From a virus (Duplodnaviria; Caudoviricetes), in the IMG/VR virus record IMGVR_UViG_3300035703_002708: 64,000 bases of DNA. One strand, 5' to 3'. Of the stretch, positions 1,937 to 44,614 are shown piece by piece; position 1 is the first letter of the stretch; each line of letters begins with the position of its first letter. Position numbers and translations under genes: made by a program. The notes beneath the pieces are model-generated. The model saw only the letters and a program-made list of their open reading frames with translations. It had not been told where the DNA came from and made no database searches.

Positions 1937-2322
1937 GAGCCGTAATCGCTGTTAATAATTTAGGGTATATTGGGAAAGATAACACCCTCCTGTGGAAATG
2001 TTCTGAAGATTTGAAACATTTTAAGAACTTAACCACAGGGGGAGTGTTGTTGGTGGGATATAACACATCTTTGACATTACCACCGCTTAAAAACAGGGAA
2101 ATTTTCATATATAAAAGAGAATATGACAGAGAACTTTTAATTTTAGAGTGTGATTGGTGTATTGGGGGTAAAAAAACTTACGAAAAGTTCTGTCATTTAT
2201 TTACTGAATTACATATTTCACATATTAACGATAATCAGGTTGGGGATACGACATTTCCTGACTTGAAAAACCTAAACAAAGATTGCAAAATCTTTAATTA
2301 TTACTTTGAACCAAATTTATGA
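1933..2322 (+). CDS. folA: Dihydrofolate reductase (short, divergent)
   Basis: IAVNNLGYIGKDNTLLW..EDLKHFKNLT, LPPLKNR, CIGG and GDTTFP match the DHFR pattern. Confidence 0.8.
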   Translation: MRAVIAVNNLGYIGKDNTLLWKCSEDLKHFKNLTTGGVLLVGYNTSLTLPPLKNREIFIYKREYDRELLILECDWCIGGKKTYEKFCHLFTELHISHINDNQVGDTTFPDLKNLNKDCKIFNYYFEPNL

Positions 2323-3329: not shown

Positions 3330-3535
3330 AAACCGTCAAAGAAAAAAAAGAAACTTCCTTGGACATTATTCGTTGCAGGTGCTGGTTGTAATAAGAAGGT
3401 TATCGGTTGACCTTCAAACCAATATTCCTCAGAGCCGGTATTTAAAGTCGAATTTACAGTTCCGAACGACCTACCTTCGAACCAATATTCCTCTAAATTA
3501 TCATCATCTATGTAATCCATTATGTCACACTCCAA
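3326..3535 (-). CDS. Small hypothetical protein at end of fibre operon
   Basis: 69 aa; internal EEYWFEG duplication; C-terminal FFFFFDGF; overlaps the upstream minus-strand gene. Confidence 0.55.
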   Translation of the reverse strand: MECDIMDYIDDDNLEEYWFEGRSFGTVNSTLNTGSEEYWFEGQPITFLLQPAPATNNVQGSFFFFFDGF

Positions 3536-12300: not shown

Positions 12301-14550
12301 TTCTCCGAATTTAGAAACTAACAAAAATTTTGCTTGTGTCGTATCAGATAGATTTGTGGCGTTTTTATTTACAGATAAAATTGCGATTAGTATTGCGTTA
12401 TCTCTAAAATTACTAAAGGTTGTAAACGCCTCGTTTTGAGCGTTAGAAACCGCTTCTGCTAATGTTGAATATACTTGTTGACCGTATTGTAATCTAAATT
12501 GTCCGTTTTGTACTAGATATATTCTTTGGTTTGTAGATGAGTTAGAACCACCACCAACGGCAGTTAACACACCAAGATTATCATATACAGTAGGGTCAAT
12601 TAGAGTTGTGTTTGATGCGGTTCCACCTGTTTGAGTTCTATATTGAAATGTGCAAGGACTTGTTCCTGACACACTGATAGAGTCCGGATTAAGTGTGTTT
12701 AAAACCCAACCAATTCCTAATCCGTATAACACACCTGCAGATGTATTGAAACTTAAATTTACACCATTTGGGGACGGATAAATACCTCCATTTATTAATC
12801 TGATAGGTGTAAACATATCTCTAACTTGAGATAATGGGGAAACGTCAAAATCAGGTTCATTAAATGCGTTTATTAAAAATGTTTTATTTGCATGACCTAA
12901 TTTACCTAAATAAACGTTTTCTCGTCTTTGTTGTGGTGTTGGAAAACTTGTTTGTTGTAAAATTGTGCCACCACTTGTTAACAAAACGTATGTTTGAGTT
13001 GCCGTATTAACGTATATTGCAGGAACATTTGATTGGCCGGAATAGGTAATATATTGAACCGTTGGTTTAAGGTAATTTGAAGTATTTTCAACAAACCATG
13101 CCTGTACAGGTGCAATATTAAATGTTGTTCCTGAAGCAGACACCAAAGATAAGCCACTGAAAGCGAATATACCTGTAGAAATAACATTACCCTCTAAAAC
13201 ATTTCTTTGTAAATCAGTTAAAGAAAGTTGAATATTTTCATTATTAATATTAACATAAACTTTTCCTGTTGTTGTTCCTGTTTGTATTATATAACCAATT
13301 TCATTTGTTCTTGCGGATAAAGGGAATGATGGGACCGCATTACTGAATTGACCTGGGTCATCATAATCTAAATAAATTGTATCACCAGGAGTATATGTTG
13401 ATGGAATATTTAAGTCACTTAATATACCGTTTGTTATAGTAAGTCCTGATGAACCTGATGGAATTGTTTCTGCCGCCAAACCAGCAACTAAACCTGTTGT
13501 TCCTGTTGTTGTATTAACAGATAGTGTAATTGCCGGCAGTCCGTTTGATTGTGATATGATAGTAACAACACTACCTTTTGTAATTGCAGATGCAGTATCG
13601 TTGAAAACCCTTAGATATAGTTGTTGACCTGTATTAACAACAACAGGGTTATTAAGGTATGAATAATAACATAATGATTGTTCATCTTGATTGAAAAAGA
13701 CTCTACCACCAGATGCCGATGGATTGGGAGTATTCGTAGTAAAATCAACATACTGAAGATTTTCAATTGTCGTGGCGGTTATGGTTTGGGCGGACAGTGT
13801 TGGAACATTTAACCTGCCTGTCATTGTATCTCCTGTTATATGAACAAAATTATCATCAACATAATCGGTAAAACCTGTAATTGGTATGGTTGTACCTGAG
13901 TTGTTTTTTAAATAAAGTGTTCCTCCTGAATATGTTCCACCTGTTACCGCATTTAAAATTAATGGTTGTGTGGTTGCCGTATACGCAGAAAAGGTTGATA
14001 TCTCCACTCTATTATTTAAGGCGATATTTGTATCTTGTGCGAACTGATTGAAAGTTGAAACATCAACCTTCGAATTTAAAATTATCTCGGTACTAGCAGT
14101 GTAAGAAGTAAAAGTATCAAAAGACGTTATTCCACTTACCTCAAAAGTATTAGTATCGTTATAAGTAAAAACTATAGTGTTTCCTGAAACTGTGCCTCCC
14201 GTAACATACGTGTCAGTTAATCCTGAAATTGTTACTTGACTACCGTTAGAGTTTCTTAATTCTAATGTACCCGCAGAATAATCAAAAGTACCACCAGTTA
14301 CAAAAATCCCACTCGTTGCGGCAGAAACAGGTGCCCAAGTTGCATTACCTGATGCGTCACAAGTTAATACATAACCATCGAACTCTGAACCATCAGAATA
14401 AGTGAAACTTGCGTTTACCGTCAATCCCGAAATGAATTTTGGATTTTCCGCAACTGAACCACCGATTCTATAAACTATTCCTGAAATTAAGTCAGATTGT
14501 AATACGTAATTATATGAGTCTTTTATTAACTGACCTGAGATATTTGACAT
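6310..14550 (-). CDS. Giant mosaic tail-fibre/adhesin-like protein
   Basis: 2746 aa; many VTGGT(Y/F) units; ~24 SH(A/S)EG repeats; C1q/BclA-like and CBM-like segments; fibre-type C-terminus. Confidence 0.75.
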   Translation of the reverse strand: MSNISGQLIKDSYNYVLQSDLISGIVYRIGGSVAENPKFISGLTVNASFTYSDGSEFDGYVLTCDASGNATWAPVSAATSGIFVTGGTFDYSAGTLELRNSNGSQVTISGLTDTYVTGGTVSGNTIVFTYNDTNTFEVSGITSFDTFTSYTASTEIILNSKVDVSTFNQFAQDTNIALNNRVEISTFSAYTATTQPLILNAVTGGTYSGGTLYLKNNSGTTIPITGFTDYVDDNFVHITGDTMTGRLNVPTLSAQTITATTIENLQYVDFTTNTPNPSASGGRVFFNQDEQSLCYYSYLNNPVVVNTGQQLYLRVFNDTASAITKGSVVTIISQSNGLPAITLSVNTTTGTTGLVAGLAAETIPSGSSGLTITNGILSDLNIPSTYTPGDTIYLDYDDPGQFSNAVPSFPLSARTNEIGYIIQTGTTTGKVYVNINNENIQLSLTDLQRNVLEGNVISTGIFAFSGLSLVSASGTTFNIAPVQAWFVENTSNYLKPTVQYITYSGQSNVPAIYVNTATQTYVLLTSGGTILQQTSFPTPQQRRENVYLGKLGHANKTFLINAFNEPDFDVSPLSQVRDMFTPIRLINGGIYPSPNGVNLSFNTSAGVLYGLGIGWVLNTLNPDSISVSGTSPCTFQYRTQTGGTASNTTLIDPTVYDNLGVLTAVGGGSNSSTNQRIYLVQNGQFRLQYGQQVYSTLAEAVSNAQNEAFTTFSNFRDNAILIAILSVNKNATNLSDTTQAKFLLVSKFGETVGASGGISTTNLQQAYDNSVEPEIVINSTLDGVSIKNGTGNADNVSHLLQGENAAGTVTSFIRADGAISGSTIYGNGSGLTHVFNTVKIDGVPQFSANTNTFINFSGINVTISSGTNNTLIFSAGTGGGGSGSGTSITGGAFTYTGNTFSGGTLTLTDSNGNPIPISGLRDTFVTGGTYNGSQITFTNNSGSTFVVTGLTATGFSANYYGSFSDSTNQPLSGANTPTVWKYNRTELSNGITVVDNTKITVANTGVYEIGYSPQIEKTQGAGAIVTIWAAINGNPVARSSSTLGLVSNSVLQLPFVSFIFELNANDYVEFYFSSDNEFVQLTALSGLTTPTRPDSPSVIIVAKQVGLAVSQGGTGDTFVTGFSLTNDVLTLSQNTNSQYSGFSVNLSGYSPSITGATSVGSGTSIYDSTTDKVINIKSITSDTTNKVSVTSQNQTIELGVNEQNFTLWNLVVQGNKLLNGSVSYVSGLTFSVSPLEYLINGQIYTISAETTVTLSSGDSTFDRIDVIYADISGNTGVLQGTPSDNPEKPLVDGDTEIEVTFVLVRANSTSADVSTFVIYNENSGPPSEWTFGSGGVQPTRIIGNFTGVTYSGGTSIRVSGVTGAYTTFFRLTGLTELNTNNYSTLQFAIRNLSANTTTSLIRFRFLTTGGTQNGSVVTMNGAGTANVVQYSPTNVSTWQLISIPLWRFYLTNTNVQVLEASFSPQGTGAQSRYYFDLFEFVEGTSSAPPSNSWTTIQGDSTATTITAPNPNATLILSGGTNISSSISGTSTVVFNLDNNINLNGVTATTISATTYQNLPTDIRVTGGTYSNGNTTFRNNTGGTFTVTGSATYSSGILSGSSNWVSNGNGSVNLPAVQVALYNNSSYTEPVQVYTVSSGVTGSGGIAALTNNDTNYIYIEYNNGSPRWGVSTDNSFINGSDVDLCYLIYRADNFVHVLDFGNEGAGLPNKISNRIVAVNRFGRESGFSLGLSGVTGVVTLTSGVAWNGTNRQSLVAVNSQDDIFFKSFHSGGTWVYTTTGDTINNTYYDDGTDIVSGTTSKYLVNWYFRGQEVNDHLYEVYGTDEYDSVAEAQLSVEPSLPELITSHAFLTGRIIVQVGATTGLVESAFVQVFQSTQVTQHNDLTSIQGGTAGQYYHLTASEYSNNAYTNVDNNFSVGQTISGGLTADTVSATTYQNLPISGLTEGSNISITGSNGNFTVSVTGITSGGSFTGNTSASCVNDFYVSNIFGCDEITLQSSIQTTGSTVNGTLSHAEGGGTSVGTTLAYSGTIISGLISLDPIYGDLTGEFSSGDYLFLTDVEFDNVLFSQSFLIDTVNYTTQTDIQLVDTSLTSTTIYVLSTVDSSVWIGDKTIVSDYSHSEGQDSKAIGEGSHAEGRTSNSFGDGSHAEGIQNSSLGQYSHAEGSQTFAIGSASHSEGNLTKSIGIGSHSEGVGSQSVGNYSHSEGSNSISNGSFSHAEGRSTQSNGVYSHAEGTSTQSDGESSHAEGSGTISSGDYSHAEGSTTTSTGNFSHAEGESTESRGQYSHAEGLTTQSYGDYSHAEGRSTQSYANSSHAEGYGTISLGAASHAEGYYTQTFAVQSHSEGYYTKSGYLGYLASATTQTVTLYSTYGNLTSLFPGGSSIILDDADLSNLNGVLSIIVTGSTFDGTNTLLNLKDTISATTACTITLPDNPNPNSADVIKGDESHSEGYYTGTYGRGSHAEGYSGRSWGDYSHVEGLGSQSFGKYSHAEGGGVTYADNSHAEGGGIAYGNYSHAQGGGITVGTQSFAQGYRSVAIGDSSAAIGYYTITSKDYQVAVGKFNTTGNTTSVFVIGNGTTDINRSDLALFNQNGVIFNAGFSATSVSAATYQNVNAVTGGTYAAGQITLSGTGNVNGTQISTKILPVALTVVSNTASTDASLSSTFTLTLTGNTTLATPTNGFSGQRIVYQLKQDGTGSKLLTLSSGFRSGPITVTLSTAANTTDYLGVIYNAIDDKWDVLALNKGYS
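6950..8230 (-). repeat. Coding repeat: YadA-head-like SH(A/S)EG units, mostly 14 aa period
   Basis: YSHAEG/GSHAEG/YSHSEG repeated through this interval with one insertion. Confidence 0.8.
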
Positions 14551-16203: not shown

Positions 16204-17244
16204 ATGAAACAAAAATTTGATTTCAAAGACATCGTCTTGGTACCCGAGGCGTTGACTGACATTTTTTCACGCAAAGACGTTGATGTATTCACCCCCGAAC
16301 ATTTTTTACCCGTTATGGTATCTCCTATGGATACTGTGGTAAATCACGAAAACTACAAGGTATTTGAGGAAAATGGTATGATAGTATGTCTTCCAAGAGG
16401 AGTTAAGGTACTAACCACAAACTCAAGATTATTTATGTCATTGTCATTAGAAGATTTTGAAAAGTTTGTAGATGACTATTCTGTTGGTATTTTTCCAAAA
16501 GGTAGAGTTAGTATCTTGGTTGATATTGCAAACGGACATATGAGAAAACTATATAACTTGGTTGATAAGTTTTTAACTCATCGTAGAGTGGACTTAGGAC
16601 ACGAAATTATGGTTGGAAATATTGCAAACCCCCAAACTTACGGTGAATACGCAAAATTAGGTGTTGATTACATCAGAGTTGGTATTGGTGGTGGTTCAGG
16701 TTGTTTGACATCAGCAAACACAGGAGTTCATTATCCTATGGCTTCATTAATTAATGAATGTTTTGAAATAAAAAAATCAAACAAATATAAAACTCGTATT
16801 GTTGCCGATGGTGGATTTAGAAATTATGATGAAATTATCAAAGCCATTTCATTAGGTGCTGATTACGTAATGTTAGGTGGTATTTTAAATAAAACTTTGG
16901 AATCTTGTGGTCAGAACTACTTGTTTAAGAAAATTAAAATCTCACAATCAATTGCCGAATACATTTGGAATAATGTGCCGTTTCTAAAAAAACACCTATA
17001 TAAATCATTTAGAGGAATGTCAACAAAAGAAGTTCAGAAAAAATGGGGTAGAGAGGTCTTGAAAACGTCAGAAGGAATTTCTAAATTTAATAAAGTAGAA
17101 TATACGGTCCCACAATGGGTCAATAACTTCAACGATTACTTGTCTTCTGCTATGTCTTATACGAATTCAATCAATTTGGATTCATTTAGAGAAGCAAGAC
17201 ACGAACATATTACAGAAAACGCACTTAAAAGATTTTACAAATAA
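16204..17244 (+). CDS. guaC: GMP reductase (IMPDH/GMPR family)
   Basis: SPMDTV, VDIANGH, GIGGGSGC catalytic loop, VADGG, FRGMS and TSEG (GMPR-like rather than IMPDH GMGS); no CBS domain. Confidence 0.7.
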   Translation: MKQKFDFKDIVLVPEALTDIFSRKDVDVFTPEHFLPVMVSPMDTVVNHENYKVFEENGMIVCLPRGVKVLTTNSRLFMSLSLEDFEKFVDDYSVGIFPKGRVSILVDIANGHMRKLYNLVDKFLTHRRVDLGHEIMVGNIANPQTYGEYAKLGVDYIRVGIGGGSGCLTSANTGVHYPMASLINECFEIKKSNKYKTRIVADGGFRNYDEIIKAISLGADYVMLGGILNKTLESCGQNYLFKKIKISQSIAEYIWNNVPFLKKHLYKSFRGMSTKEVQKKWGREVLKTSEGISKFNKVEYTVPQWVNNFNDYLSSAMSYTNSINLDSFREARHEHITENALKRFYK

Positions 17245-23333: not shown

Positions 23334-23657
23334 ATGGAAATTAAAGAAATTGTAAATCATTATGTAAATTTTACAAATGACATCTTGGAAGTGAGTTTTA
23401 GAACAATTGATGATGCGGATAATGAGTTAAGAAACGCAGAAATTCCTGTCGTTGAGATTATTGCATTTGGTTATGATTTTATAAAAAATGACTCAGCGTT
23501 ACTTGAAGCATTCGATGATGACGATGGAGATGATGAATTTTTCGATGAAATATCTTTAATAAAAGACGAATCATTAGATATTCATGACTTGATGTCGTTT
23601 TTGAACGAATATTATTTAGTATATCCTGACCAATTACCAAAAAAAGAATTATTTTAA
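23334..23657 (+). CDS. Acidic hypothetical protein
   Basis: In-frame ATG at 23334 just after the previous stop. Confidence 0.65.
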   Translation: MEIKEIVNHYVNFTNDILEVSFRTIDDADNELRNAEIPVVEIIAFGYDFIKNDSALLEAFDDDDGDDEFFDEISLIKDESLDIHDLMSFLNEYYLVYPDQLPKKELF

Positions 23658-24154
23658 GGACCTACTCTTGATAATTGTAAAGTAATTTCTTGTTTCGCAC
23701 CTAAATTGGCAAAAGGCCATTGTCCTGACGAACGAAGTGTCATACTTTCAGGTTGTCTATCAATGACTCTGAATATTCTTTTGGTTCCTTCACACATGAA
23801 TTCGATGTAACCGTCCTCCCAACCCGAAGAACTTGTCATATCAATATAATATTGTTTCGTCCAAATTTTACGACCAAAACCATCAAGCACAGGTGCCATA
23901 GAAATTATGTTATAATCAAATCTCCAAGTAGTGAATCCTAATTTGATAGTATCCATAGGGTAAATTTCATCAGGATTGACATAGGTCGAACCTGGATAAT
24001 ATGTTGTATCATCAGTGGTTACATTATTATCTATTTTCTGAAAAGTTATCAAGTCTATTACATATTCTCCTTGAAGATTTCCAGCCGATGGTTGGTTATA
24101 TCTTTCACAAGAAAATAAAAAAGGTAAGAGTAGTAAAAAAATCAGTCGTTTCAT
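23654..24154 (-). CDS. Predicted lipoprotein (lipocalin-like beta-barrel possible)
   Basis: MKRLIFLLLLPFLFS-C lipobox, then beta-rich mature domain. Confidence 0.7.
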   Translation of the reverse strand: MKRLIFLLLLPFLFSCERYNQPSAGNLQGEYVIDLITFQKIDNNVTTDDTTYYPGSTYVNPDEIYPMDTIKLGFTTWRFDYNIISMAPVLDGFGRKIWTKQYYIDMTSSSGWEDGYIEFMCEGTKRIFRVIDRQPESMTLRSSGQWPFANLGAKQEITLQLSRVGP

Positions 24155-24454: not shown

Positions 24455-24703
24455 ATGAATTTTGATATTGATAATCTGATTAGTTTGATGAAAAGTTCTA
24501 ACTCAGTTGATTCAGAACTTGGCGAACAAGATGCCGCCCCATCAGGTGGAGCTTCGACAGGAGGGGGTGGAGCGAAACCTCCTTATCCTACCGTAACAAA
24601 GTGGGAAACAGGATTAACTAGGGGTCCTGCAAACCAAATAGCCTTATCTAAATGGTCAGATATAGTAAAATTAAATCGCGGTAAAGCAAACACTTTATTA
24701 TAA
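24455..24703 (+). CDS. Hypothetical protein
   Basis: 82 aa; TATTTAT at 24444-24450 is 4 nt before ATG. Confidence 0.7.
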   Translation: MNFDIDNLISLMKSSNSVDSELGEQDAAPSGGASTGGGGAKPPYPTVTKWETGLTRGPANQIALSKWSDIVKLNRGKANTLL

Positions 24704-24720
24704 TAAGACATATTTATTTA

Positions 24721-25992
24721 ATGATGGAAACAAATGAAATTTTAAATAGAATCAAATTGATGATGAATTATGATTCTAAAAGAACTCTGACTGAGAATAA
24801 AATATTATTGGAGGCGCCCAAAACTGGTGAAGGTGACAACATAAAAAAAATTTATGACCAATTAAAATTCGCTATAGGTGATGCAGGTACCAATATAGGC
24901 AATTTGGATATTGCTTTTGATATGATTGCTAAAATGACCGATAGTAGCGAATTAGCCTCCTTGGATAAATATATGAGTAATAAGCCAATATTCGGAGGAT
25001 TCAACTCATATTATAGGTCGCTACAACAAGCTTTGGATGAAGAATTGGGGTATAACAATGGTAAGGATTCAGACAGATATGCCGCGATTTTAAATAAAAT
25101 ACCAGGAGTTAAAGCGGTTGCAACTAGAAGCCAAAATAATTCAAATAACGCTGGAAGTTTTAAAATATCTTACACCTCAACATCATCTGAGAGCGGAAAA
25201 CCAAAAGAAAACACACAACAAGGAAAATTTCCAAGTTGTATTACTAATGTCGAACAAAACTATCCGAATAAGGTTCAATCATCACCATCCAAAAAAGGAG
25301 GTATATCTATTAAATTTGTTGGAGACACCGCTTGGAAAACATATTACCCATATATCGGGCCAAATTATGGTAGGTATATAGATGGAGGTACTAATGTTGT
25401 GGGATATTATTATTGTGACGGAAGAGGAATAAAATTAGGTTTACCTCCTGGAACATCAAAAAGCACTGCAGATGCTGCTACCAAAAAACAACAAAGTAAA
25501 GGAGGAGGTACTAGTTGGGTGCAATCACCATCTTGTGAGGATGTTGTTAAAGGTACGGTAACCATTAAAAAGGGTATGAAAGGTGATTGTGTTGGTAAAA
25601 TACAAACAAAATTAATAGAAAAGGGTTTTAATGAAGTAGGAACCCCGGATAACAAATTTGGTAAAAATACTGAGGCGGCTGTAATTAGTCTTCAGAAAAA
25701 GGCCGGATTGACATACAATGGTGTTGTCGATAAAGCAACGTACAACTATTTATTTTTTGACACCACTAATACAGAGACCCCAACCTTACAGACAAAAAAC
25801 CTCCAACAAATCCCTAACACAGTAGCGGACCAACCACAAACTATACCAACACCGGCACAAGCTGTCACACAAACTACAACAACCGAGACACCGGCTGACA
25901 CGCAACAAACACAAACGGGTACACAACAAATTTCGTCGGGAGGTAAAAGAAGAAAGGGTGGATTAAGAAATTTATTCAGAAGAAACAAATAA
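24721..25992 (+). CDS. Protein with peptidoglycan-binding domain
   Basis: IKKGMKGDCVGKIQTKL..DNKFGKNTEAAVISLQKKAGL..GVVDKAT PG_binding_1 pattern; ILNRIKLMMNY..ILLE|A leader. Confidence 0.75.
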   Translation: MMETNEILNRIKLMMNYDSKRTLTENKILLEAPKTGEGDNIKKIYDQLKFAIGDAGTNIGNLDIAFDMIAKMTDSSELASLDKYMSNKPIFGGFNSYYRSLQQALDEELGYNNGKDSDRYAAILNKIPGVKAVATRSQNNSNNAGSFKISYTSTSSESGKPKENTQQGKFPSCITNVEQNYPNKVQSSPSKKGGISIKFVGDTAWKTYYPYIGPNYGRYIDGGTNVVGYYYCDGRGIKLGLPPGTSKSTADAATKKQQSKGGGTSWVQSPSCEDVVKGTVTIKKGMKGDCVGKIQTKLIEKGFNEVGTPDNKFGKNTEAAVISLQKKAGLTYNGVVDKATYNYLFFDTTNTETPTLQTKNLQQIPNTVADQPQTIPTPAQAVTQTTTTETPADTQQTQTGTQQISSGGKRRKGGLRNLFRRNK

Positions 25993-25996
25993 AAAT

Positions 25997-26668
25997 ATGA
26001 AAACACTTAATAAAACAATCAGAAAAAATCTTTTGGAGACAAAAGATATAAAAAAAAGTTTGTTAGTAGAACAAAGAATAATACGAGGAAGATACAATTT
26101 TTTATTGGAATCGTTTCGCACTTTAGAGAAGATAAGTATCGATAAGATATTTTTCATAACACTCAACGAATCCAAAAAATTGAGAGAGTTAAATTTGGAT
26201 AAAAAAATGATTTTGAAAGAGGAGGAATCCTTCTTTTCGTCATTATTTTCTATATTTGGTTCAGGTATATTTCCTTCTCTTAAAGAGTATGGTGCCAAAT
26301 GGATAATAGAAAGAACCTTCGGTGAGGATGCTGCTAAATCAATGATGGCACAAACTGTTATTGCTGCATTTGGTAACTTGGATTGGGAATCAATCACAAA
26401 ACTTTTTACAGATTGTTCTTTTACATCTAAATGGTTAGTTGAAACAATTATAGAAGGATTTGTAAGAAAATATCAAGAAAAATCAGGTGCCACTGGAGTT
26501 TTTGCCGACACTGTAAGAAATGGAATTGTTGAGGCGATAGGAAGTAGCGAAGTTATTGATGCCTTGTCAAATAAACTTATGGGGTTTGTTTGTAATATGA
26601 TTGGTGGGTTGAAACCAAAAATGGAAGACGCTTATTCGGCAATCAAACAAAAGGTTGTTGCCAATTAA
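25997..26668 (+). CDS. Hypothetical protein
   Basis: 223 aa; leader rich in LLE/LVE/LNE. Confidence 0.7.
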   Translation: MKTLNKTIRKNLLETKDIKKSLLVEQRIIRGRYNFLLESFRTLEKISIDKIFFITLNESKKLRELNLDKKMILKEEESFFSSLFSIFGSGIFPSLKEYGAKWIIERTFGEDAAKSMMAQTVIAAFGNLDWESITKLFTDCSFTSKWLVETIIEGFVRKYQEKSGATGVFADTVRNGIVEAIGSSEVIDALSNKLMGFVCNMIGGLKPKMEDAYSAIKQKVVAN

Positions 26669-26747
26669 TTTGACTTTACGGGACTAGCGTCCTGTTCTGT
26701 ATAAACATCTAAAAAAAGGGGGTGTTCCAAATCTAGCAAAAGAGAGT

Positions 26748-26770
26748 TTTCGGACTCTCTTTTGTTTTTT
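26748..26770. terminator. Bidirectional intrinsic terminator
   Basis: aaaagagagt-tttcgg-actctcttt between convergent genes. Confidence 0.8.
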
Positions 26771-29354
26771 ACCTCAACAAGTTGACAATACCTTTTTGTT
26801 CGTGGTATTGTTGTTTCACATCTCTATATACTATTTCATAATAATACACACCTGTAGGAACCTCTTTACCCCCATATTTACCATCCCAACTCATAGTAAC
26901 ATCATAAGACCTATATAATACTTCATTCCACCTATTATATATAACCATATAAAACTCCTCGATACGAGATGAAGCTACGGCAAAAAACTCATTATTGAAG
27001 TCCCCATTTGGTGTGAATGTGTTTGGAACATATAAAACTGATAACGGATAAATCAATACACAGTTTTCAGCGGAATCGACACAAGTAGGAATACCTGTTG
27101 TATAATAAGCCTTTGTTTCTAACTTAATACAATAATTTCCTGGCCCCAAATATGTATGTGATGGGTTGTCAGTCTGAGATGAGTCTCCATCACCGAAATC
27201 CCAAATATAAGATTGACCATCCTGCGATAAATTAAAAAAATCAAATGTAGGTTTTAATATATCTGTTATATTTCCACCCAATGTTGTAAATGACGCTGTC
27301 GGTGTTTTATTTATAATGATGTGATTTGGTTTTATAAGTGAGTCCACACAACCCTTATCTGATGTTGCAATTACTTTTAATGTAAAGACCCCTTCATTAT
27401 CATAACAATTTGTGAAACTTGTTTGAGTAATCCAATTTGGTTCTCCGATACTCCACTGATATGTATAATTTATTTGAGGATTAAGTATATCAAAATCAAT
27501 ACATTTAGGATGACAACCAGTTACGTCACTTTCAGTAAAATTTGGGTCAGGTAATGAATTTACGGTAATACCCTTCTGAAATGTCTGTTGACATCCATTA
27601 GCGTCGGTCAAGGTTGCAATATAAACTCCTGAGGCTGGTGGAATTACGTTGGAGTTATTGTTGTATGTTGTTGCGTCAAAAGGATTTGTCCAAACAATAT
27701 TATATGGTTGAATCGCATTTTGTTCAGATACAAATAAATTGGCTGGATACCCAAAACAAACTTCTTCTAACAATTGACCTTGTAATATAATATTATTAGG
27801 TTGACCAATATTGATACCCAAAGTAATATCACATGAGTTATCGTCTGTTACGGTGACTTGATAATACCCAGCAGTCACGTTTGTAAGATTTTGTGTGTTA
27901 TTTGGTGGCGGTATGTTCCATAAAAAAGAATAAGGTTGAGTTCCCCCATTTAAATCGATAGTTACAGTTCCATCTGAATACCCAAAACAAGTAGGTTCGG
28001 TCATAGATATTGTTCCACCCAAAGGTTGAGCAGGGCCCAAAACAAATATGTTTGGAACAATGTGTTCACACCCTTCATCATCGGTAATAAGTGCTGAGTA
28101 AGCGTTTGCTGGTAGATTATCGAAAAACCCTGTGTTATTTACAACACCATTTAACTCAAAAAGATAAGGTGGGGTTCCACCATTAGCAACAACCGTTATT
28201 GTCCCATCGTTGTCTCCAAAACATAACAAATTTGAGACAACAGGAGGAGTGTTTGTGATATTAGTTGGTTCTGAAATAATAACATTATGATTGTACGTAC
28301 ATCCATTATCATCTTCAACTATAATAAGATGATTTCCTGCCGGCATATTGTTATAAACACCAGTTGGTTGAGATACACCATTTAAAGTATATGTGTAAGG
28401 AATTTGTCCACCGGCAGAAGTAATCTCAAATGAACCATTTGATTCACCAAAACATACATTATCTACCAAATTTATTGTGTTATTAACTACAGGTGTATTT
28501 TCTCCAACAACAACATTTAATACGTTTGAATTGCATGCCTCATCATCGGTACAAGTAACTACGTAAGGACCTGGTGATAAATTTGTAACAGGAAAATTAA
28601 CAGGATTACCATCTAAAAAGAATTGGTATGGTGCAGTTCCTTGATTTACACTTACATCTATTTCTCCATCATTAAATCCACTACAAGTGGCATCTGTAAC
28701 TGATACCAAACTAATTACAGGGGGCGTAAGACAACCTAAAACTACGGTATTTGGTGATAACTGAAATTGATAAAATCCATTACATCCATTTGTCCCCCAA
28801 CTTCCTGCAAAACCATCACTAACAGGAGATACTTGCATCGAAAGTGATGCTCCTGCCGTATTACCCACTGTTGCCTCAAAACAAAAAGTCCAAGGACCTG
28901 TTCCAAAATCCCCCCAATCATCTGAACTTTGCCCATCGGTATTTAAATCAAAGAAAAAACCAGGACCAAATTGATTTCCGGCACCTCCAGCGGATGTAGG
29001 ATTACCGTTAAATGGGTTTGCTATCCATAACCACTGTCCTCCTGAACCATTACCACCTTGATTTGGTGGGTAAGTCGTAGGTGTAAGTGTTGTTAAATCC
29101 CAACCTGGTCCTACTGTTATATCAAAACCTTCTAACCAATTAGTTCCGATACCTGTGTTCCAATTGTTGAAGGTTACACAAAATTCTACTACTTGACCTG
29201 GTTCATAGCCACCCCCCGCAGGAAGAGGATTAACAACAACACTTTGGGTTCCCATACAATCGTTTTGTGAAAACCCAATAGTTGATAAAATTAAAAATAA
29301 AGATACAAATAAACTTTTTATTTGATTCCCATAGACTCTTGAAATTCTTTCCAT
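26769..29354 (-). CDS. T9SS type-B CTD (gliding-motility-associated CTD) surface protein with SprB-like repeats and PKD domain
   Basis: Signal peptide ending GFS|Q; about four D(A/V/P)TC.G..DG.I.....GGT.PY repeats; PKD YIWDFGDG..NPSHTY; LYVPNTFTPNGD.NN..F..IYNRW..WDG..PTGVYYY..KG.VNLLR. Confidence 0.9.
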   Translation of the reverse strand: MERISRVYGNQIKSLFVSLFLILSTIGFSQNDCMGTQSVVVNPLPAGGGYEPGQVVEFCVTFNNWNTGIGTNWLEGFDITVGPGWDLTTLTPTTYPPNQGGNGSGGQWLWIANPFNGNPTSAGGAGNQFGPGFFFDLNTDGQSSDDWGDFGTGPWTFCFEATVGNTAGASLSMQVSPVSDGFAGSWGTNGCNGFYQFQLSPNTVVLGCLTPPVISLVSVTDATCSGFNDGEIDVSVNQGTAPYQFFLDGNPVNFPVTNLSPGPYVVTCTDDEACNSNVLNVVVGENTPVVNNTINLVDNVCFGESNGSFEITSAGGQIPYTYTLNGVSQPTGVYNNMPAGNHLIIVEDDNGCTYNHNVIISEPTNITNTPPVVSNLLCFGDNDGTITVVANGGTPPYLFELNGVVNNTGFFDNLPANAYSALITDDEGCEHIVPNIFVLGPAQPLGGTISMTEPTCFGYSDGTVTIDLNGGTQPYSFLWNIPPPNNTQNLTNVTAGYYQVTVTDDNSCDITLGINIGQPNNIILQGQLLEEVCFGYPANLFVSEQNAIQPYNIVWTNPFDATTYNNNSNVIPPASGVYIATLTDANGCQQTFQKGITVNSLPDPNFTESDVTGCHPKCIDFDILNPQINYTYQWSIGEPNWITQTSFTNCYDNEGVFTLKVIATSDKGCVDSLIKPNHIIINKTPTASFTTLGGNITDILKPTFDFFNLSQDGQSYIWDFGDGDSSQTDNPSHTYLGPGNYCIKLETKAYYTTGIPTCVDSAENCVLIYPLSVLYVPNTFTPNGDFNNEFFAVASSRIEEFYMVIYNRWNEVLYRSYDVTMSWDGKYGGKEVPTGVYYYEIVYRDVKQQYHEQKGIVNLLR

Positions 29355-29815
29355 AATGTTTCTACTGAATTGTGAAATATCTCCGAAAACAAAGATGGTT
29401 CATAAGGTTTTTTCCTTAATGTCATTCCTGCTTCGTGTGGAGTTTTATCACCTTTTTTTCTATTACAGTTTCCGCAGCATGTAACCAAGTTAGTCCATCT
29501 ATTTGAACCTCCTCTTGATTTGGGTAATACGTGGTCAATCGTTAAATTTTTATTTAAACCACAATACACACACTGAAAACCGTCTCGTTTATAAATTCTT
29601 GCCCGATTAACTTTTAAATTCTTAACTCTGTATTTAACATAGTTTAATAATCTAATAATTAATGGACGAGCAAATTTAAATGAACCAGCATCAATCGGTT
29701 TTTCACCTTGTTTCAAAATCTCAGCCTTACCTTTATTAACAAGGTTAAATCCTCTAATAAGTGAGGTCACATTAAGAGGGCTGTAATCGGCATTCAAAAC
29801 TAATACTTTTTCCAT
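29318..29815 (-). CDS. HNH endonuclease (McrA-like)
   Basis: VLVLNADYSPL, RDGFQCVYCG, LTIDHVLPKSRGG..WTNLVTCCGNCN..KGD. Confidence 0.9.
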   Translation of the reverse strand: MEKVLVLNADYSPLNVTSLIRGFNLVNKGKAEILKQGEKPIDAGSFKFARPLIIRLLNYVKYRVKNLKVNRARIYKRDGFQCVYCGLNKNLTIDHVLPKSRGGSNRWTNLVTCCGNCNRKKGDKTPHEAGMTLRKKPYEPSLFSEIFHNSVETLWKEFQESMGIK

Positions 29816-29865
29816 TTTTCTTTAGTTTAACAAATTTATTTTAATTAATCAAATTTCTTATAAAC

Positions 29866-29900
29866 AAAAAAAGGTCACCTATTACAGTGACCCTCTTATT
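29866..29900 (-). terminator. Intrinsic terminator
   Basis: aaaaaaaggtcac..gtgaccctctt; T-run on the minus strand. Confidence 0.65.
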
Positions 29901-29927
29901 ATAGTGTAAGGTTAGGAAAGTCACATA

Positions 29928-29999
29928 TTACATCCGTGCAGAATTTTTCATTCCAAATACTAATTCGGTTAAAAGATTATATGAAACAGATTGGTCCAT
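29928..29999 (-). CDS. Putative 23 aa peptide MDQSVSYNLLTELVFGMKNSARM
   Basis: Translated by hand; TATTTAT (plus 30004-30010) is 4 nt before ATG; terminator downstream. Confidence 0.4.
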   Translation of the reverse strand: MDQSVSYNLLTELVFGMKNSARM

Positions 30000-30100
30000 A
30001 TTAATAAATATATGGTTGGTATGTAATAAAAGACAAATTTTTAGTAATAATAAATTTATATAAAAAGTAAAGAGTATCTCATTTCAAAATATTTATAGGT

Positions 30101-30601
30101 ATGAGAACTTCCGTACTGTCAGCATTATTTTTAATGCTACTATTATCTTTTAGACCGGTAGAAGAAGGTCTGGTGTGTTCACACTGTGACTTTGCAAGAA
30201 AGTATGATACAAGGGTTGAATTAAGTCCCAAACAACCAAAAGAATATATTCATACTGATTCGTTATTTATGTTTCAACCAATAATTGACAACATAGATGA
30301 ACCGAAAAAATATTGGTATATTCAAGAGTTTAGGATGACTTACAAGGATTTACACTATTGTAGTGATTCTACTCGTCTTACAATTTATTTGGCTAATGAT
30401 TCAATCAAAATGTGGAATATCAGACCAAGAATAAGTTGTAGAATAGATATGTGGTATAGATTAACTGATGAACAACAGATTATGTTATCAAAATATGCGA
30501 TTAACAAAATCAAAATAGAAAATAGGGTGACTGATAATATATATGTATATAAAATGACTGACCCTGGTTATTACATAAAATGTTTCGATATGTTGAAATA
30601 A
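30101..30601 (+). CDS. Secreted hypothetical protein
   Basis: Signal-like MRTSVLSALFLMLLLSF; TATTTAT at 30090-30096 is 4 nt before ATG. Confidence 0.7.
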   Translation: MRTSVLSALFLMLLLSFRPVEEGLVCSHCDFARKYDTRVELSPKQPKEYIHTDSLFMFQPIIDNIDEPKKYWYIQEFRMTYKDLHYCSDSTRLTIYLANDSIKMWNIRPRISCRIDMWYRLTDEQQIMLSKYAINKIKIENRVTDNIYVYKMTDPGYYIKCFDMLK

Positions 30602-30656: not shown

Positions 30657-30728
<72 letters not shown>

Positions 30729-30785
30729 CAAAAAAAATTAAAAAAAGTTTGTCTGTTAAAAACAAAACTATTATCTTTGTAAAAA

Positions 30786-30968
30786 ATGGGACAGTTCGTT
30801 ATCATAAAATTCATCAAAAATCAACAGGGAAAAGAGATGCCTGTGATAATTATAGATACTCATAATGAGGTCTTAGAGTTTGAGACATTCGAGGAGGCCG
30901 AAAAGATGAGAGATTTGATGGAAGCGAACTCAGATAGTGGATATCGTTACGAAGTAAAAAAAATATAA
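30786..30968 (+). CDS. Small hypothetical protein between tRNAs
   Basis: 60 aa; TATCTTTG at 30772-30779. Confidence 0.6.
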   Translation: MGQFVIIKFIKNQQGKEMPVIIIDTHNEVLEFETFEEAEKMRDLMEANSDSGYRYEVKKI

Positions 30969-30975
30969 AATATTT

Positions 30976-31052
30976 GGCCCCGTAGCTCAGTTGGATAGAG
31001 CAACAGCCTTCTAAGCTGTGGGTCGCACGTTCGAGCCGTGCCGGGGTCACCA
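30976..31052 (+). tRNA. tRNA-Arg (TCT)
   Basis: Acceptor GGCCCCG/CGGGGTC; ACAGC-CTTCTAA-GCTGT; encoded CCA. Confidence 0.95.
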
Positions 31053-31054
31053 TT

Positions 31055-31128
31055 GGACTTTTAGCTCAGTCGGTTAGAGCAACGGACTCATAATCCGTCG
31101 GTCGTTGGTTCGAGTCCAACAAGGTCCA
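31055..31128 (+). tRNA. tRNA with CAT anticodon (Ile2/lysidine or elongator Met)
   Basis: Acceptor GGACTTT/AAGGTCC; ACGGA-CTCATAA-TCCGT; overall resemblance to bacterial Ile2 but identity not resolvable by eye. Confidence 0.9.
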
Positions 31129-31144
31129 CAAAAGGAAATTTAAC

Positions 31145-31378: not shown

Positions 31379-31445
31379 TAAAAAATAATTTTTGGCGGAC
31401 TCAATTTTTTGTTTTACATTTGTAGAAACTAAAAGGATAAACACC

Positions 31446-31574
31446 ATGAAAAAAATTGTAGTTCTAATTTTGACCGTTATTACACTATCTTTGACCGTAA
31501 CTTCTTGTGCTACCTCTCATGGTGGTTGTAAAGGATTAAAAGCCCACCCCGATTATGGACGCAAATTTCGATAG
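31446..31574 (+). CDS. Small lipoprotein (42 aa)
   Basis: MKKIVVLILTVITLSLTVTS-C lipobox; TACATTTG at 31415-31422. Confidence 0.65.
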   Translation: MKKIVVLILTVITLSLTVTSCATSHGGCKGLKAHPDYGRKFR

Positions 31575-38429: not shown

Positions 38430-39128
38430 ATAATTCAGAAAGTTCTTTAAAGTATAAGTTACTGAAACAGTCTAGGTCCGTAGGGCTACTGTTGTATGTG
38501 AGGAAAGTGACTACGGGACTCCTTCGCATTTAAAGTGTAAGTGAAACATATTACCGCAGCGGTTATAGTAACAAAAGTAATTCAGAAAAGAGGTCTAGTG
38601 TGAACCTGACTAAATAGTATGACTTCGGTCATCGTTTTTGCGAGTCTGTAGCACGTTCTGAATTTTTTACGGTATGGCGGGGTAGACTGGAGAAGGCACC
38701 AGCTGAGTCTCATAAGCTCAACCACGCAGGTTCGATTCCTGCTCCCGCAACTAGTGACCCGTTTACGGTGGAATCGGATGAAGCCACCTAATTTTTCGGG
38801 ATGACGAAAAAAAACAAAAAAAAGAATGTGTCCGGGGGAGTTTTGTTTAATATTTAGGCTCTTGTTATGTGTTTCACACCCCTCACCCGTGAAATCAGAA
38901 AAAAAAGACCACCTTTTATAGTGTGTGCGTAGATGTGATAACCACACCTTTCGTTTGAGGTTCATCAAAACGAATAAAAAATGGGCTTAGTCACCCATTT
39001 AACACATCCGTCGAGTGGTCGAACGATTCGAGTTAATTGCTCACTACAATTAAACTTGGGTTTATTGGAAACCTAACCACAAAACCAATAGCCAAATAAG
39101 GGTTATCACTTCGGTGGTTACCCTTTTT
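38430..39128 (+). ncRNA. Putative long structured non-coding transcript with embedded tRNA
   Basis: TAACTTTG at 38415-38422; boxA-like GTTCTTTAA at 38442; more than ten GC-enriched hairpins; no credible ORF; UUCG-capped terminator at about 39098-39130. Confidence 0.5.
38676..38750 (+). tRNA. Atypical initiator-like tRNA (CAT)
   Basis: GGCGGGG/TCCCGCA with 1:72 G-A mismatch; TGAGT-CTCATAA-GCTCA; GCAGG-TTCGATT-CCTGC; shifted D-stem CTGG/CCAG. Confidence 0.85.
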
Positions 39129-39190: not shown

Positions 39191-39561
39191 TGGTGGAGAT
39201 GCGGGGTGCTGCCCCCCGGTCTTGCTCACTTTGGTAATTAAGGACTACGTAAATAGGTCAACATTAGTTCTTAATGTTCCGAAATATTGATTTTCTTACT
39301 CAGAAAACCACAAACGAGTTTTGTTTCTTTTAGGATAGAAACCACACCCTACCAGTACTTCTGTTCCGAGGTTATATGTACGCCGACCCGAAGTAGTTTC
39401 GCCTTAGGCTACTGCTACAGTTTCAGAAGTACGAACAAGTCCTACAGCTGAAAGTTTGTTGATAACGTTTCCGTCTAATTGTTAAGTCAGTTTTACAAGG
39501 TTAACTCAGCCTCGTTACGCCCTTAATTAGCAACCGTGCCAATCGATGCTATGTCATCCCC
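39191..39561 (-). ncRNA. ssrA: tmRNA
   Basis: 5' GGGGATG pairs with 3' CATCTCC-ACCA (G3.U70); T-arm CGGGG-GGCAGCA-CCCCG; tag ORF 39472-39404 after UAGAC context encodes (A)GNVINKLSAVGLVRTSETVAVA*. Confidence 0.93.
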
Positions 39562-42446: not shown

Positions 42447-42595
42447 GAAAATCCGAAGGTCGTTGAGGATTAAAATATAAAGCGACTGGGTGGGGAAAGT
42501 TATGTGTCAGCTTCCACCGAGTAATAACACTTCTGAACCAAACAAAATTTGGTCAGGCAGAAAGGAAAAGGAGGTCATTCGACCTCCTTTTTTGA
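42446..42595 (+). ncRNA. Putative ~150 nt structured small RNA
   Basis: TATATTTG at 42434-42441; stems AATCC/GGATT, GGTGG/CCACC, CTGA.CCAAA/TTTGGTCAG; terminator aaaaggaggtc-attc-gacctcctttttt. Confidence 0.45.
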
Positions 42596-44614
42596 TTTAC
42601 CCTTCTTTGGTTTTTTATCTTCTGTAATTTTAACTTGTTCTTCTTCAACAGATATAGTATAGTTGTGGTCGGTGAGTAATTCACCTTTGAGGACTTCTTC
42701 TGAAATGTAATCTTCAATCTTGTCCTGAATCGCTCTTTTCAAAGGACGGGCACCATACATCTCGTCAAATCCAACTTTAGAAATCATATCAACAATTGAG
42801 TCGTCAAATTTGACGTTGTACTTAATTTTGGTCAATCTATCTGTCAACTTAATAAGTTCAATTTTAACAATTTCTTTTACGTGTTCTTCTTTCAAAGTGT
42901 TGAATACAATGATATCATCGATACGGTTCAAGAACTCAGGTGCAAAAAATTTCTGAAGTTCTTTTTTCAGAGTATCTCGTTTTTGTTCCTCAACGATATA
43001 ATCCTTTTTCTGAAAACCGATACCCGAACCAAATTCTTGGACTTTTTTAACACCAAGATTTGATGTCATAATAATCAAACAATTTTTGAAGTTAATTTTA
43101 CGACCCAAACTATCAGTTAGGTGTCCATCATCCAATACTTGAAGTAATGTTGAAAACACATCTTTATTTGCTTTTTCAATTTCGTCAAACAAAACAACTG
43201 AATATGGTTTATTTTTAACTTGTTCAGTGAGTTGTCCCCCCTCATCATAACCCACATATCCTGGAGGTGCCCCAATCAAACGAGACACGGTATGTTTTTC
43301 TTGATATTCGGACATATCAATTCTGATTAGTGAATCTTCACTACCAAAAATTTCTTTCGCCAATTGTTTTGCTAAATGTGTTTTACCAACACCTGTTGAA
43401 CCCAAGAAGATAAACGAACCAATTGGTCTATTAGGGTCTTTGATACCCAATCTATTTCTACGAATTGCTTTCGAGATTTTACTTACCGCTTCCGATTGAC
43501 CAATAACTTTTGATTCCAACATCGACTCCAAATTAATAAGAGATTTTGTGTCATCAACATTTAATTTACCAACAGGAATTTTGGTCATATTTGAAACAAC
43601 CTCATAAACAAGTTCGATTTGAACATCTTTTTTGTTGATATTCATTTCTTCTTCAAATCTTTGTTTTTCAGCATGGAGTCGGTTTAATACTTTTTTCTCC
43701 TTATCTCGTAATTCCGCCGCTTGTTCATAGTTTTGTCTTTTAACAACATCTATCTTCATTTGTTTTATATCAGAGGCCTCCTGTTTTAACTTTTCAATAG
43801 ACTCTGGCATTTTAACATCTACCTGACTTCTTGCACCTACTTCATCTATAATATCAAAAGCTTTGTCAGGAAACTCTCTATCTGTAATATATCTGTCTGC
43901 TAAATCAACACAAGTAATTAATACTTCATCCGAGAAAATTACTTTGTGATAATCCTCATATTTTGATTTGGAGTTTCTTAAAATTTGTAAAGTTTCATCT
44001 TTCGTTGCTGGGTCAACAATCACTTTTTGAAATCTGCGTTCAAGTGCTCCGTCTTTTTCAAAGTTTTTTCTATACTCATCTAATGTTGTCGCTCCAATAC
44101 ACTGAATTTCTCCTCTTGCAAGTGCGGGTTTGAATATGTTTGAAGCGTCTAAAGAACCTGAAGAATTACCAGCACCTACGATTGTATGGATTTCATCAAT
44201 AAAGACAATAATGTTTGGATGAGATTGTAATTCCTCGATTATCACTTTCATTCTTTCCTCAAACTGACCACGATATTTTGTTCCCGCAACAATCGATGTC
44301 ATATCAAGTAATACAATCCTTTTATCAACCAAATTTCTTGGACATTCACCTTGTTGGATTTTCATTGCCAATCCTTCAACAATTGCGGTTTTACCACAAC
44401 CTGGCTCACCAATAATAATTGGGTTATTTTTCTTTCTTCTTGATAGAATTTGAGCAATTCTCAATATTTCTTTATCTCTACCAATTACAGGGTCTAATTT
44501 ACCTTCTTCGGCATACTTAATCAAATCTTTTGAGAAGTTATCTAATACAGGTGTTCCTGTTTCACTTTCTATTTTCTTTTTGTGTGATGGTCCATCATCC
44601 ATTATCTCGTTCAT
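42575..44614 (-). CDS. clpC: ClpC-like AAA+ unfoldase lacking the N-terminal repeat domain
   Basis: GKLDPVIGR, GEPGCGKT, FIDEIH, UVR-like QNYEQAAELRD, GSTGVGKT, LFDEIEK, IGF loop, GARPLKR. Confidence 0.88.
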   Translation of the reverse strand: MNEIMDDGPSHKKKIESETGTPVLDNFSKDLIKYAEEGKLDPVIGRDKEILRIAQILSRRKKNNPIIIGEPGCGKTAIVEGLAMKIQQGECPRNLVDKRIVLLDMTSIVAGTKYRGQFEERMKVIIEELQSHPNIIVFIDEIHTIVGAGNSSGSLDASNIFKPALARGEIQCIGATTLDEYRKNFEKDGALERRFQKVIVDPATKDETLQILRNSKSKYEDYHKVIFSDEVLITCVDLADRYITDREFPDKAFDIIDEVGARSQVDVKMPESIEKLKQEASDIKQMKIDVVKRQNYEQAAELRDKEKKVLNRLHAEKQRFEEEMNINKKDVQIELVYEVVSNMTKIPVGKLNVDDTKSLINLESMLESKVIGQSEAVSKISKAIRRNRLGIKDPNRPIGSFIFLGSTGVGKTHLAKQLAKEIFGSEDSLIRIDMSEYQEKHTVSRLIGAPPGYVGYDEGGQLTEQVKNKPYSVVLFDEIEKANKDVFSTLLQVLDDGHLTDSLGRKINFKNCLIIMTSNLGVKKVQEFGSGIGFQKKDYIVEEQKRDTLKKELQKFFAPEFLNRIDDIIVFNTLKEEHVKEIVKIELIKLTDRLTKIKYNVKFDDSIVDMISKVGFDEMYGARPLKRAIQDKIEDYISEEVLKGELLTDHNYTISVEEEQVKITEDKKPKKGKSKKEVE

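Follow-up and report, generated by a model that had tools for sequence, protein, structure and literature searches.

A phage gene for a predicted type-B cargo of the type IX secretion system and the cassette exchange of its N-terminal head

Results

A cargo-like protein encoded behind an HNH gene

We analyzed a two-gene unit in a 64,000-nucleotide stretch of DNA from a tailed phage (Duplodnaviria; Caudoviricetes), IMG/VR record IMGVR_UViG_3300035703_002708; the whole stretch is called the window here. The unit lies on the minus strand and consists of a gene for a 165-amino acid (aa) HNH endonuclease followed by a gene for an 861-aa protein, and the two open reading frames (ORFs) overlap by 37 nucleotides (Table 1). 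A sequence-only reading of the window had placed both ORFs and their overlap exactly where we find them and had described the longer product as a type IX secretion system (T9SS) cargo protein, with a signal peptide, SprB repeats, a PKD domain and a C-terminal domain (CTD) of type B. Each of these features was present when the protein was compared with Pfam and NCBIfam and inspected. The interpretation attached to them is supported in part; that reading had overlooked an N-terminal head domain and its cassette exchange, which are described below.

Several models were used to classify the protein. A search with sorting-domain and SprB-repeat models had been suggested as a check of the sequence-only reading, and both kinds of model matched. 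The Pfam SprB repeat (PF13573) was found in four stretches (E = 2.3e-37), and CHU_C (PF13585) aligned to residues 776-858 with 53.3 bits against a cut-off of 27. The NCBIfam model for type-B sorting domains, TIGR04131, matched the extreme C-terminus (52.2 bits; cut-off, 35). The type-A model TIGR04183 scored 19.3 bits, below its cut-off of 23, and its match was internal. A hidden Markov model (HMM) built from CTDs recognized the protein's own CTD at 1.4e-36, and this was the sole type-B CTD that it found in the window.

The signal peptide was judged by inspection and by its conservation among orthologs. It has a basic n-region and a hydrophobic core, and it ends at a predicted cleavage site (...GFS|QNDC). 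The Gln at position +1 is kept in every full-length ortholog, within a conserved junction, ...[SA]Q(N/Q)DCMG. Gln at this position is a known habit of Bacteroidota signal peptidase I substrates. The n-region is longer in the clade of the window protein (MERISR...) and is coded within the 3' end of the HNH gene. The mature protein contains 23 Cys residues, which fits an exported protein. Judged by its sequence, the 861-aa protein carries all hallmarks of type-B T9SS cargo.

Table 1. Features of the HNH-cargo unit and its surroundings in the window
Feature	Position	Strand	Remarks
Variable island: 423-aa protein with peptidoglycan-binding domain (PF01471) and 223-aa ORF	24698..26666	+	Break in blastn synteny; context only
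14-bp hairpin, predicted bidirectional terminator	26735..26766	.	Between the convergent cargo and 223-aa genes; 2 nt past the cargo stop codon
Cargo gene, 861 aa	26769..29354	-	Second gene of the two-gene unit
Type-B T9SS CTD, residues 776-859 of 861	26778..27029	-	PF13585, TIGR04131, own CTD HMM
PKD domain, residues 683-748	27111..27308	-	PF18911 (PKD_4) 2.2e-13; PF00801 2.4e-10
Degenerate fifth repeat and immunoglobulin (Ig)-like spacer, residues 521-680	27315..27794	-	From sequence
Four SprB repeats (stalk), residues 211-520, period ~77 aa	27795..28724	-	Each begins C-x-G-x-x-(N/D)-G
N-terminal head, residues 30-210	28725..29267	-	No Pfam match; beta-sandwich (model); exchanged cassette
Sec signal peptide, residues 1-29	29268..29354	-	Predicted cleavage before Gln30
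HNH endonuclease gene, 165 aa	29318..29815	-	First gene of the two-gene unit; last 37 nt hold the cargo gene start
Promoter-like box TAAATTTG	29831..29838	-	Matches the Bacteroidota -7 motif TAnnTTTG; 15 nt before the HNH ATG
G+C-rich hairpin followed by T run, terminator-like	29868..29897	-	12 pairs, 4 of them G-C; upstream of the HNH promoter region

PorP-like proteins keep type-B cargo attached to the cell surface (Gorasia 2022, PMC9143113), and a PorP/SprF gene, either nearby or elsewhere in the genome, is a usual feature of such cargo. No PorP/SprF match (PF11751) was found among the 28 larger window ORFs scanned with Pfam, which agrees with what the sequence-only reading had reported for the window, and five related phage records (1.22 Mb in total) gave nine CHU_C matches and no PorP_SprF match. 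As a positive control, the same model recovered three to six copies in each of three bacterial genomes. We do not regard the partner gene as a strict criterion because the bacterial homologs that we examined (see below) also lack an adjacent PorP/SprF gene. With no such gene among the window ORFs and phage records scanned, export and anchoring of the cargo protein would have to rely on host parts.

The cargo gene belongs to a phage genome

The sequence-only reading had named an assembly chimera with host DNA as a finding that would overturn it. The window codes for a T4-type large terminase, a portal and a major capsid protein, and the nearest cultured relative of the terminase is that of a 160-kb Flavobacterium myovirus (27% identity). 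Base composition (G+C content) is flat across the HNH-cargo region. A megablast search with a 5-kb region gave no match among GenBank phages. Independent assemblies (L001-L005, L010, L011 and the 261-kb IMG/VR contig behind L019) also contain the HNH-cargo pair, and in them its overlap and its upstream flank are unchanged. Contigs from four sequencing runs of four studies (X2, X4 and X5, freshwater; X18, aquatic) match the window allele at 90% identity or more; these matches are to contigs, and gaps in coverage carry no meaning. Contigs from the three freshwater runs bridge the junctions between HNH gene and head and between head and stalk; one of 1105 nucleotides, for example, spans 28564-29668. 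The phage genes in the window and the replicated synteny identify the cargo gene as a phage gene. The synteny refutes an assembly chimera, and host DNA misplaced in a phage bin has become a vanishingly small prospect.

The head is a conserved domain shared with bacterial T9SS cargo

The N-terminal head (residues 30-210) has no Pfam match. It is the best-conserved part of the protein, with a mean column entropy of 0.75 versus 1.26-1.46 elsewhere; 78 of its 186 alignment positions are near-invariant and 53 are hypervariable. An AlphaFold (AF2) model made from the family alignment is an eight-stranded beta-sandwich with a predicted local distance difference test score (pLDDT) of 75. Foldseek found no match to the head in the PDB at E 0.001 or better. 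Comparisons using AlphaFold Database (AFDB) clusters and VIA-align returned a generic beta-sandwich likeness to pilin, adhesin and cohesin domains, with Z scores of 8-8.8 that are near background and too unspecific to point to a function.

An exhaustive HMMER search (E 0.001 or better) placed the head domain in 340 representative clusters. The copies are mostly N-terminal (137 of 191 start before residue 70), and a T9SS CTD was present on 34 of the 40 head-domain proteins that were scanned, 27 of them type B and 7 type A. The family can be described as a beta-sandwich of ~175 aa with the invariant motifs C-x-G, NP-x-P, FGPGFF-x-D, DDWGD and VSDG-x-AGSW, placed N-terminally or after one other domain on proteins that end in a T9SS CTD. 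These sequence searches indicate that the head, a domain outside the coverage of Pfam, is widespread among bacterial T9SS cargo.

Three head-domain proteins were checked by genomic context, and all were bacterial: one is encoded beside acpP-fabF-rnc-pyk, another beside menaquinone genes, and the third, in a Flavobacteriales metagenome-assembled genome (MAG), at a gene for an extracytoplasmic function (ECF) sigma factor that is followed by five tandem paralogs. PorP/SprF was not adjacent to any of these three genes. Named genomes with the head include freshwater Bacteroidia, Chitinophagales and Flavobacteriaceae, among them Flavobacterium cauense. In a tree of heads that included the bacterial homologs, the phage clade grouped within the bacterial proteins (87% by the SH-like approximate likelihood ratio test, SH-aLRT, inside a clade with support 99), and the head of one variant, P0026, was nearer to the bacterial proteins.

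The head is exchanged between related phages

Among the relatives of the cargo protein, identity to the window head stays between 67 and 87%, and outside the head it varies between 41 and 90%. In a tree of residues 211-861, ten HNH-linked proteins form one clade (support 99). The head tree rejects this clade (difference in log-likelihood 221, P = 0.0002 in the approximately unbiased (AU) test). The clade had been defined by linkage to HNH and by identity outside the head, but only once a first tree was available. In the opposite direction, the tree built from residues 211-861 rejects two groups seen in the head tree (AU P = 1.6e-36 and 6e-117).

The same pattern is visible in DNA alignments. 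Loci L001 and L003 are 94-98% identical in the flanks and the HNH region and ~95% in the stalk, and they fall to 63-75% from about 29290 to about 28700, which covers the head only. The signal peptide is also mosaic: the window protein combines the signal peptide of P0003-P0006 with the head of P0001 and P0007. The conserved junctions on the two sides of the head, QNDCMG and VLGCLTPPV, are likely crossover sites. Taken together, the trees and alignments indicate that the head is a recombining cassette swapped between related phages. As a speculation, repair of breaks made by the HNH nuclease might promote the exchange of the nearby head.

A family of cargo genes across phages

The 861-aa protein belongs to a tight family of 827-961-aa relatives; without the head, these span the range of identities given above. 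The contexts of the orthologs that we examined (L001-L011 and one further contig) were all phage-like and belong to large phages. One of these contigs is 480 kb long, and IMG/VR contigs of 128-261 kb also carry orthologs. The orthologs lie among many small ORFs without Pfam matches and genes for T4 RNA ligase, PNKP, IF3 and phage lysozyme. A larger member is encoded by LR756502.1, an uncultured 642-kb megaphage, in which an unannotated 1670-aa ORF (L014 815-5827) contains 13 SprB repeats, a PKD domain and CHU_C. This genome has two further CHU_C matches and no PorP_SprF match. The type-B cargo family is old and conserved within the phage lineage.

One distant ortholog lies in a different arrangement. 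At the P0012 locus (6428-9933) it stands beside genes for a 459-aa protein, a 185-aa PKD_6 protein and a 187-aa CHU_C protein, and a gene for a 327-aa protein lies on the opposite strand. We considered the 327-aa protein as a PorP-like barrel and dropped it, as no Pfam match is on record.

The HNH gene is resident at the locus

The HNH protein contains the catalytic motif: HNH_5 scored 58 bits, HNH and HNH_4 also exceeded their Pfam cut-offs, and PHROG 16726 matched at 2e-38. The family is very conserved, with 943 relatives of 163-165 aa, most of which are 63-70% identical. The sequence-only reading had suggested that the HNH gene may have mobilized the cargo gene, and the comparison of loci does not bear this out. 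In L015 and L016, an HNH gene whose product is 65% identical occupies the same syntenic place, between a conserved 82-aa marker gene with large variable genes and the upstream small gene, and no cargo gene follows it. Cargo orthologs in other phages lie in different contexts without HNH. Mobile free-standing homing endonucleases come and go between close relatives or occur as several dispersed copies. We found no presence/absence polymorphism of HNH between close relatives, as it has the same place in all relatives examined. An HNH gene that is syntenic without the cargo gene, and a cargo gene that occurs elsewhere without HNH, identify HNH as the resident gene. By these synteny comparisons, the cargo gene either landed behind HNH or was lost from there elsewhere.

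Transcription of the HNH-cargo unit

A promoter had been proposed upstream of HNH in the sequence-only reading. The position of TAAATTTG before the HNH start agrees with that call, and the motif itself is weak. The window contains 139 copies of TAnnTTTG where 95 +/- 10 are expected, the box reads TAAATTTA in three orthologous loci (the final G is replaced by A), and there is no -33 element at the usual spacing. A scan for sigma-70 promoters found 19 in comparison with 17 expected from shuffles, which is not above the shuffled background. We therefore regard TAAATTTG as a plausible promoter by its position only.

The stem of the upstream hairpin is invariant in L001, L003 and L010. Because terminator-like hairpins are found on both sides, the HNH-cargo pair looks like an insulated unit, antisense to both of its neighbors. 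It lies among tRNA genes and small ORFs, away from the block of late structural genes at 47-64 kb in the window.

The 280-bp intergenic region upstream of HNH (29868-30100, minus strand) is 87% conserved between loci whose proteins are 65-83% identical. It ends in the invariant hairpin and a run of seven T residues, and it holds a second TAAATTTA box near 30050. Rfam gave no match in this conserved region, which could code for a small RNA or be a shared divergent regulatory region.

Surroundings of the unit

The island next to the cargo gene differs between relatives, where it spans 6.9-7.3 kb and holds two to four large unannotated genes (L001 12675-19575; L003 12683-20009; also L015 5592-10113). 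The flanks of the island are conserved, with the 82-aa gene on one side and the cargo or HNH gene on the other. The 223-aa ORF of the window island is homologous to the C-terminal 220 aa of proteins of 565-891 aa in the relatives. Three small ORFs near the cargo gene (23654-24154, minus strand; 30101-30601 and 31392-31574, plus strand) have lipoprotein-type (...LFSC, ...VTSC) or Sec-type N-termini, and several exported phage proteins may be clustered around it. Proteins of 166 aa encoded near the cargo gene are conserved in the relatives (78-90%).

Farther away, the window contains a tmRNA (39191-39561, minus strand; full length, 77 bits with Rfam) and four tRNA genes (Glu-TTC, Arg-TCT and two Met-CAT; 30657-31129 and 38676-38751, plus strand). 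A giant ORF of 2746 aa (6310-14550, minus strand) and an 847-aa ORF (3520-6063, minus strand) have no Pfam match, and the former matches PHROG 25468, of unknown function, in four stretches. Two genes relate to purine metabolism: one for an adenylosuccinate synthetase (2e-82) and one for an enzyme of the IMPDH/GMP reductase type (9e-35), at 2319-3329 and 16204-17244 on the plus strand. A 679-aa ATP-dependent protease with an AAA+ domain is encoded at 42575-44614 on the minus strand (PHROG 4871, 1e-242).

Discussion

A model for the cargo protein

We favor, with somewhat better than even confidence, a model in which this large freshwater phage of Bacteroidota encodes a type-B cargo protein that the host T9SS and a PorP-like protein of the host place on the infected cell, where it presents a binding head on a stalk. 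The cargo gene and the HNH gene upstream would form a transcription unit of their own; behind HNH, as in one clade, the cargo gene would borrow the HNH promoter and a start codon. The protein would be exported by Sec and probably cleaved by signal peptidase I before Gln30. The host T9SS would then move it across the outer membrane by means of the type-B CTD, with a host PorP-like protein acting as shuttle and anchor. From the cell outward, the protein is predicted to consist of the CTD as its anchor, the PKD domain, the stalk of SprB repeats and, at the tip, the head. The head would be the working part, a putative binding module whose specificity may be re-assorted among phages by cassette exchange. 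The architecture, the phage context, the conservation across a phage lineage, the lack of PorP/SprF in relatives, and the domain family and recombination of the head are observed here; we infer secretion, anchoring, binding and a benefit to the phage. The most likely use of the protein would be to alter what the infected cell binds or what binds the infected cell. It may keep the infected cell among susceptible hosts or on particles, or it may mask a ligand on the surface that serves other phages as their receptor. Surface display, and effects on gliding, aggregation or receptor masking as envisaged by the sequence-only reading, could follow from this arrangement.

A bolder version of this model seems possible to us, and rather doubtful. 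A widespread lineage of freshwater jumbo phages of Bacteroidota might give the infected cell a phage-made surface lectin or adhesin, exported by the host T9SS and anchored by host PorP-like proteins, with a pool of interchangeable head alleles that are shared with bacterial adhesins and shuffled between phages under frequency-dependent selection. If this were true, an arms race of the kind known from receptor-binding proteins would be fought on the infected cell's surface and not on the virion.

Several observations weigh against the display model. Some copies of the cargo gene are decayed: in L006 (10001-12552, on the 480-kb contig) and L007 the CTD lies in a separate overlapping frame, and L008 and L009 are truncated at the 5' end, so that the signal peptide and the first ~120 residues of the head are missing. 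The truncated copy in L008 (9854-12136) lies in a 66.8-kb IMG/VR contig and was seen in two samples. Such copies mean that the cargo gene is dispensable and accessory. Type-B cargo of F. johnsoniae is thought to require specific partners (PMC9143113). The PorP/SprF search for this phage covers the window, and such a gene could lie outside it. The only RNA-labeled run is probably DNA and is represented by contigs, which give no start site, strand or expression level. Finally, the fold matches of the head are generic, so the case for binding draws on the architecture of the protein and on the evolutionary pattern of the head.

Alternative explanations

The absence of PorP/SprF genes from the phage lineage bears on two other explanations. 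The CTD might compete with host type-B cargo for PorP-like carriers or for the translocon, a possibility that the sequence-only reading had raised. SprB-like adhesins are needed by many Flavobacterium phages for adsorption, and an infected cell that lost such surface receptors would block superinfection and would no longer adsorb progeny while dying. Pairing of carriers and cargo is documented (PMC9143113), and with type-B CTD genes and no PorP/SprF gene in the phage lineage some competition for carriers would be unavoidable. However, a signal peptide and a CTD would be enough for a protein that does nothing but compete. The CTD ranks with the least conserved parts of the protein (entropy 1.46; 37-57% identity among distant orthologs), whereas the distal head is the most conserved and is actively exchanged. 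This pattern indicates that selection acts on the head, and we consider traffic jamming an unlikely main function. The missing partner gene could also mean that the protein, for want of a cognate PorP-like anchor, is secreted by the T9SS and shed as a soluble binding protein or decoy, since T9SS cargo may be either cell-bound or released (PMC9143113). We judge release to be quite unlikely. A stalk with a distal head is the typical layout of an anchored surface protein, and the bacterial homologs also lack an adjacent PorP/SprF gene, so a missing neighbor does not predict release.

A virion protein, such as a Hoc-like Ig decoration of the capsid or a fiber in which signal peptide and CTD are relics, is very unlikely in our view. 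The Ig-type repeats of Hoc aid adhesion of the phage particle. Ig-like domains are common on virions (cited in PMC6949934), the neighboring island genes are large, variable and unannotated, and residues 461-601 show a weak match to the Hoc-like PHROG 2973 (5e-5), in which no stretch is significant alone. Against these points, orthologs as distant as 41% identity still have the complete CTD and the signal peptide with its Gln at +1. The unit is antisense to its neighbors and bounded by terminators of its own, and ~18 kb separate it from the closest structural genes. Tailed phages are not known to assemble parts of their virions outside the cytoplasm.

Relation to known systems

Phage genes with a T9SS CTD were described in Cryophage, where they presumably commandeer secretion by the host (Bellas et al. 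2020, Nat Commun, PMC7468147). Cryophage resembles the window phage in carrying T9SS cargo genes, and its cargo genes are variable "metagenomic island" genes that differ between near-identical variants. In Cryophage, the CTDs are of type A and belong to enzymes (endoglucanase, GH39, PA14), which would be attached through PorU and PorV. The window cargo, by contrast, is of type B and combines a non-enzymatic SprB/PKD stalk with a binding-type head and a predicted PorP-like anchor, and its variability is confined to one exchanged domain. T9SS CTD-bearing ORFs were also noted in contigs of crAss-like phages of Bacteroidota (de Jonge et al. 2019, PMC6949934). Those cases differ in that they come from gut phages, are associated with BACON domains and lie next to head genes, and they were not analyzed further there. 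In the literature that we searched, we found no phage cargo described as type B or as having SprB repeats.

The comparison with SprB, which the sequence-only reading had drawn, holds for the repeats and the CTD type and is too strong beyond them. Both proteins have SprB repeats, a type-B CTD, the logic of export by Sec and then T9SS, and a predicted hold by a PorP-like protein (PMC9143113). SprB is a 669-kDa protein that is expressed together with SprF, its carrier, and that the motility machinery propels along the cell (PMC9143113). The window cargo is not an ortholog of SprB: it has 861 aa, four to five repeats, no sprF and an unrelated N-terminal head. Closer counterparts are the bacterial head-SprB-PKD-CHU_C proteins of freshwater Bacteroidia, Chitinophagales and Flavobacteriales MAGs (P0124, P0129, P0292; L012, L013, L025-L040). 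Their heads are 35-58% identical to that of the window protein, and they share its domain order, its CTD type and the lack of an adjacent PorP/SprF gene. They are longer (1237-1599 aa, with more repeats) and are encoded among housekeeping genes or as tandem paralogs behind an ECF sigma factor. The proteins of the phage clade are a shortened version of this bacterial type.

The evolutionary pattern has a parallel in the distal tail fibers of T-even phages, which likewise have a conserved scaffold and a recombining specificity domain whose tree conflicts with that of the scaffold. The tip of a T-even fiber sits on the virion and recognizes the host, whereas the head described here is part of an exported protein and would sit on the cell.

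Phage-encoded T9SS cargo has so far been noted only in passing, with type-A CTDs, and was once called "a unique occurrence". Members of the type-B cargo family described here occur in IMG/VR contigs, in a 642-kb megaphage that has been published and, across roughly a dozen studies, in freshwater metagenomes. The family brings out a head domain, so far without annotation, that is common to hundreds of bacterial T9SS proteins, and it raises the question of how a foreign type-B cargo finds a PorP-like carrier. The exchange of the head alone points to strong selection on what the infected cell displays. A phage-made surface protein of this kind would be relevant to superinfection, to the aggregation or particle attachment of infected lake Bacteroidota, and to the part that T9SS-linked structures play as phage receptors.

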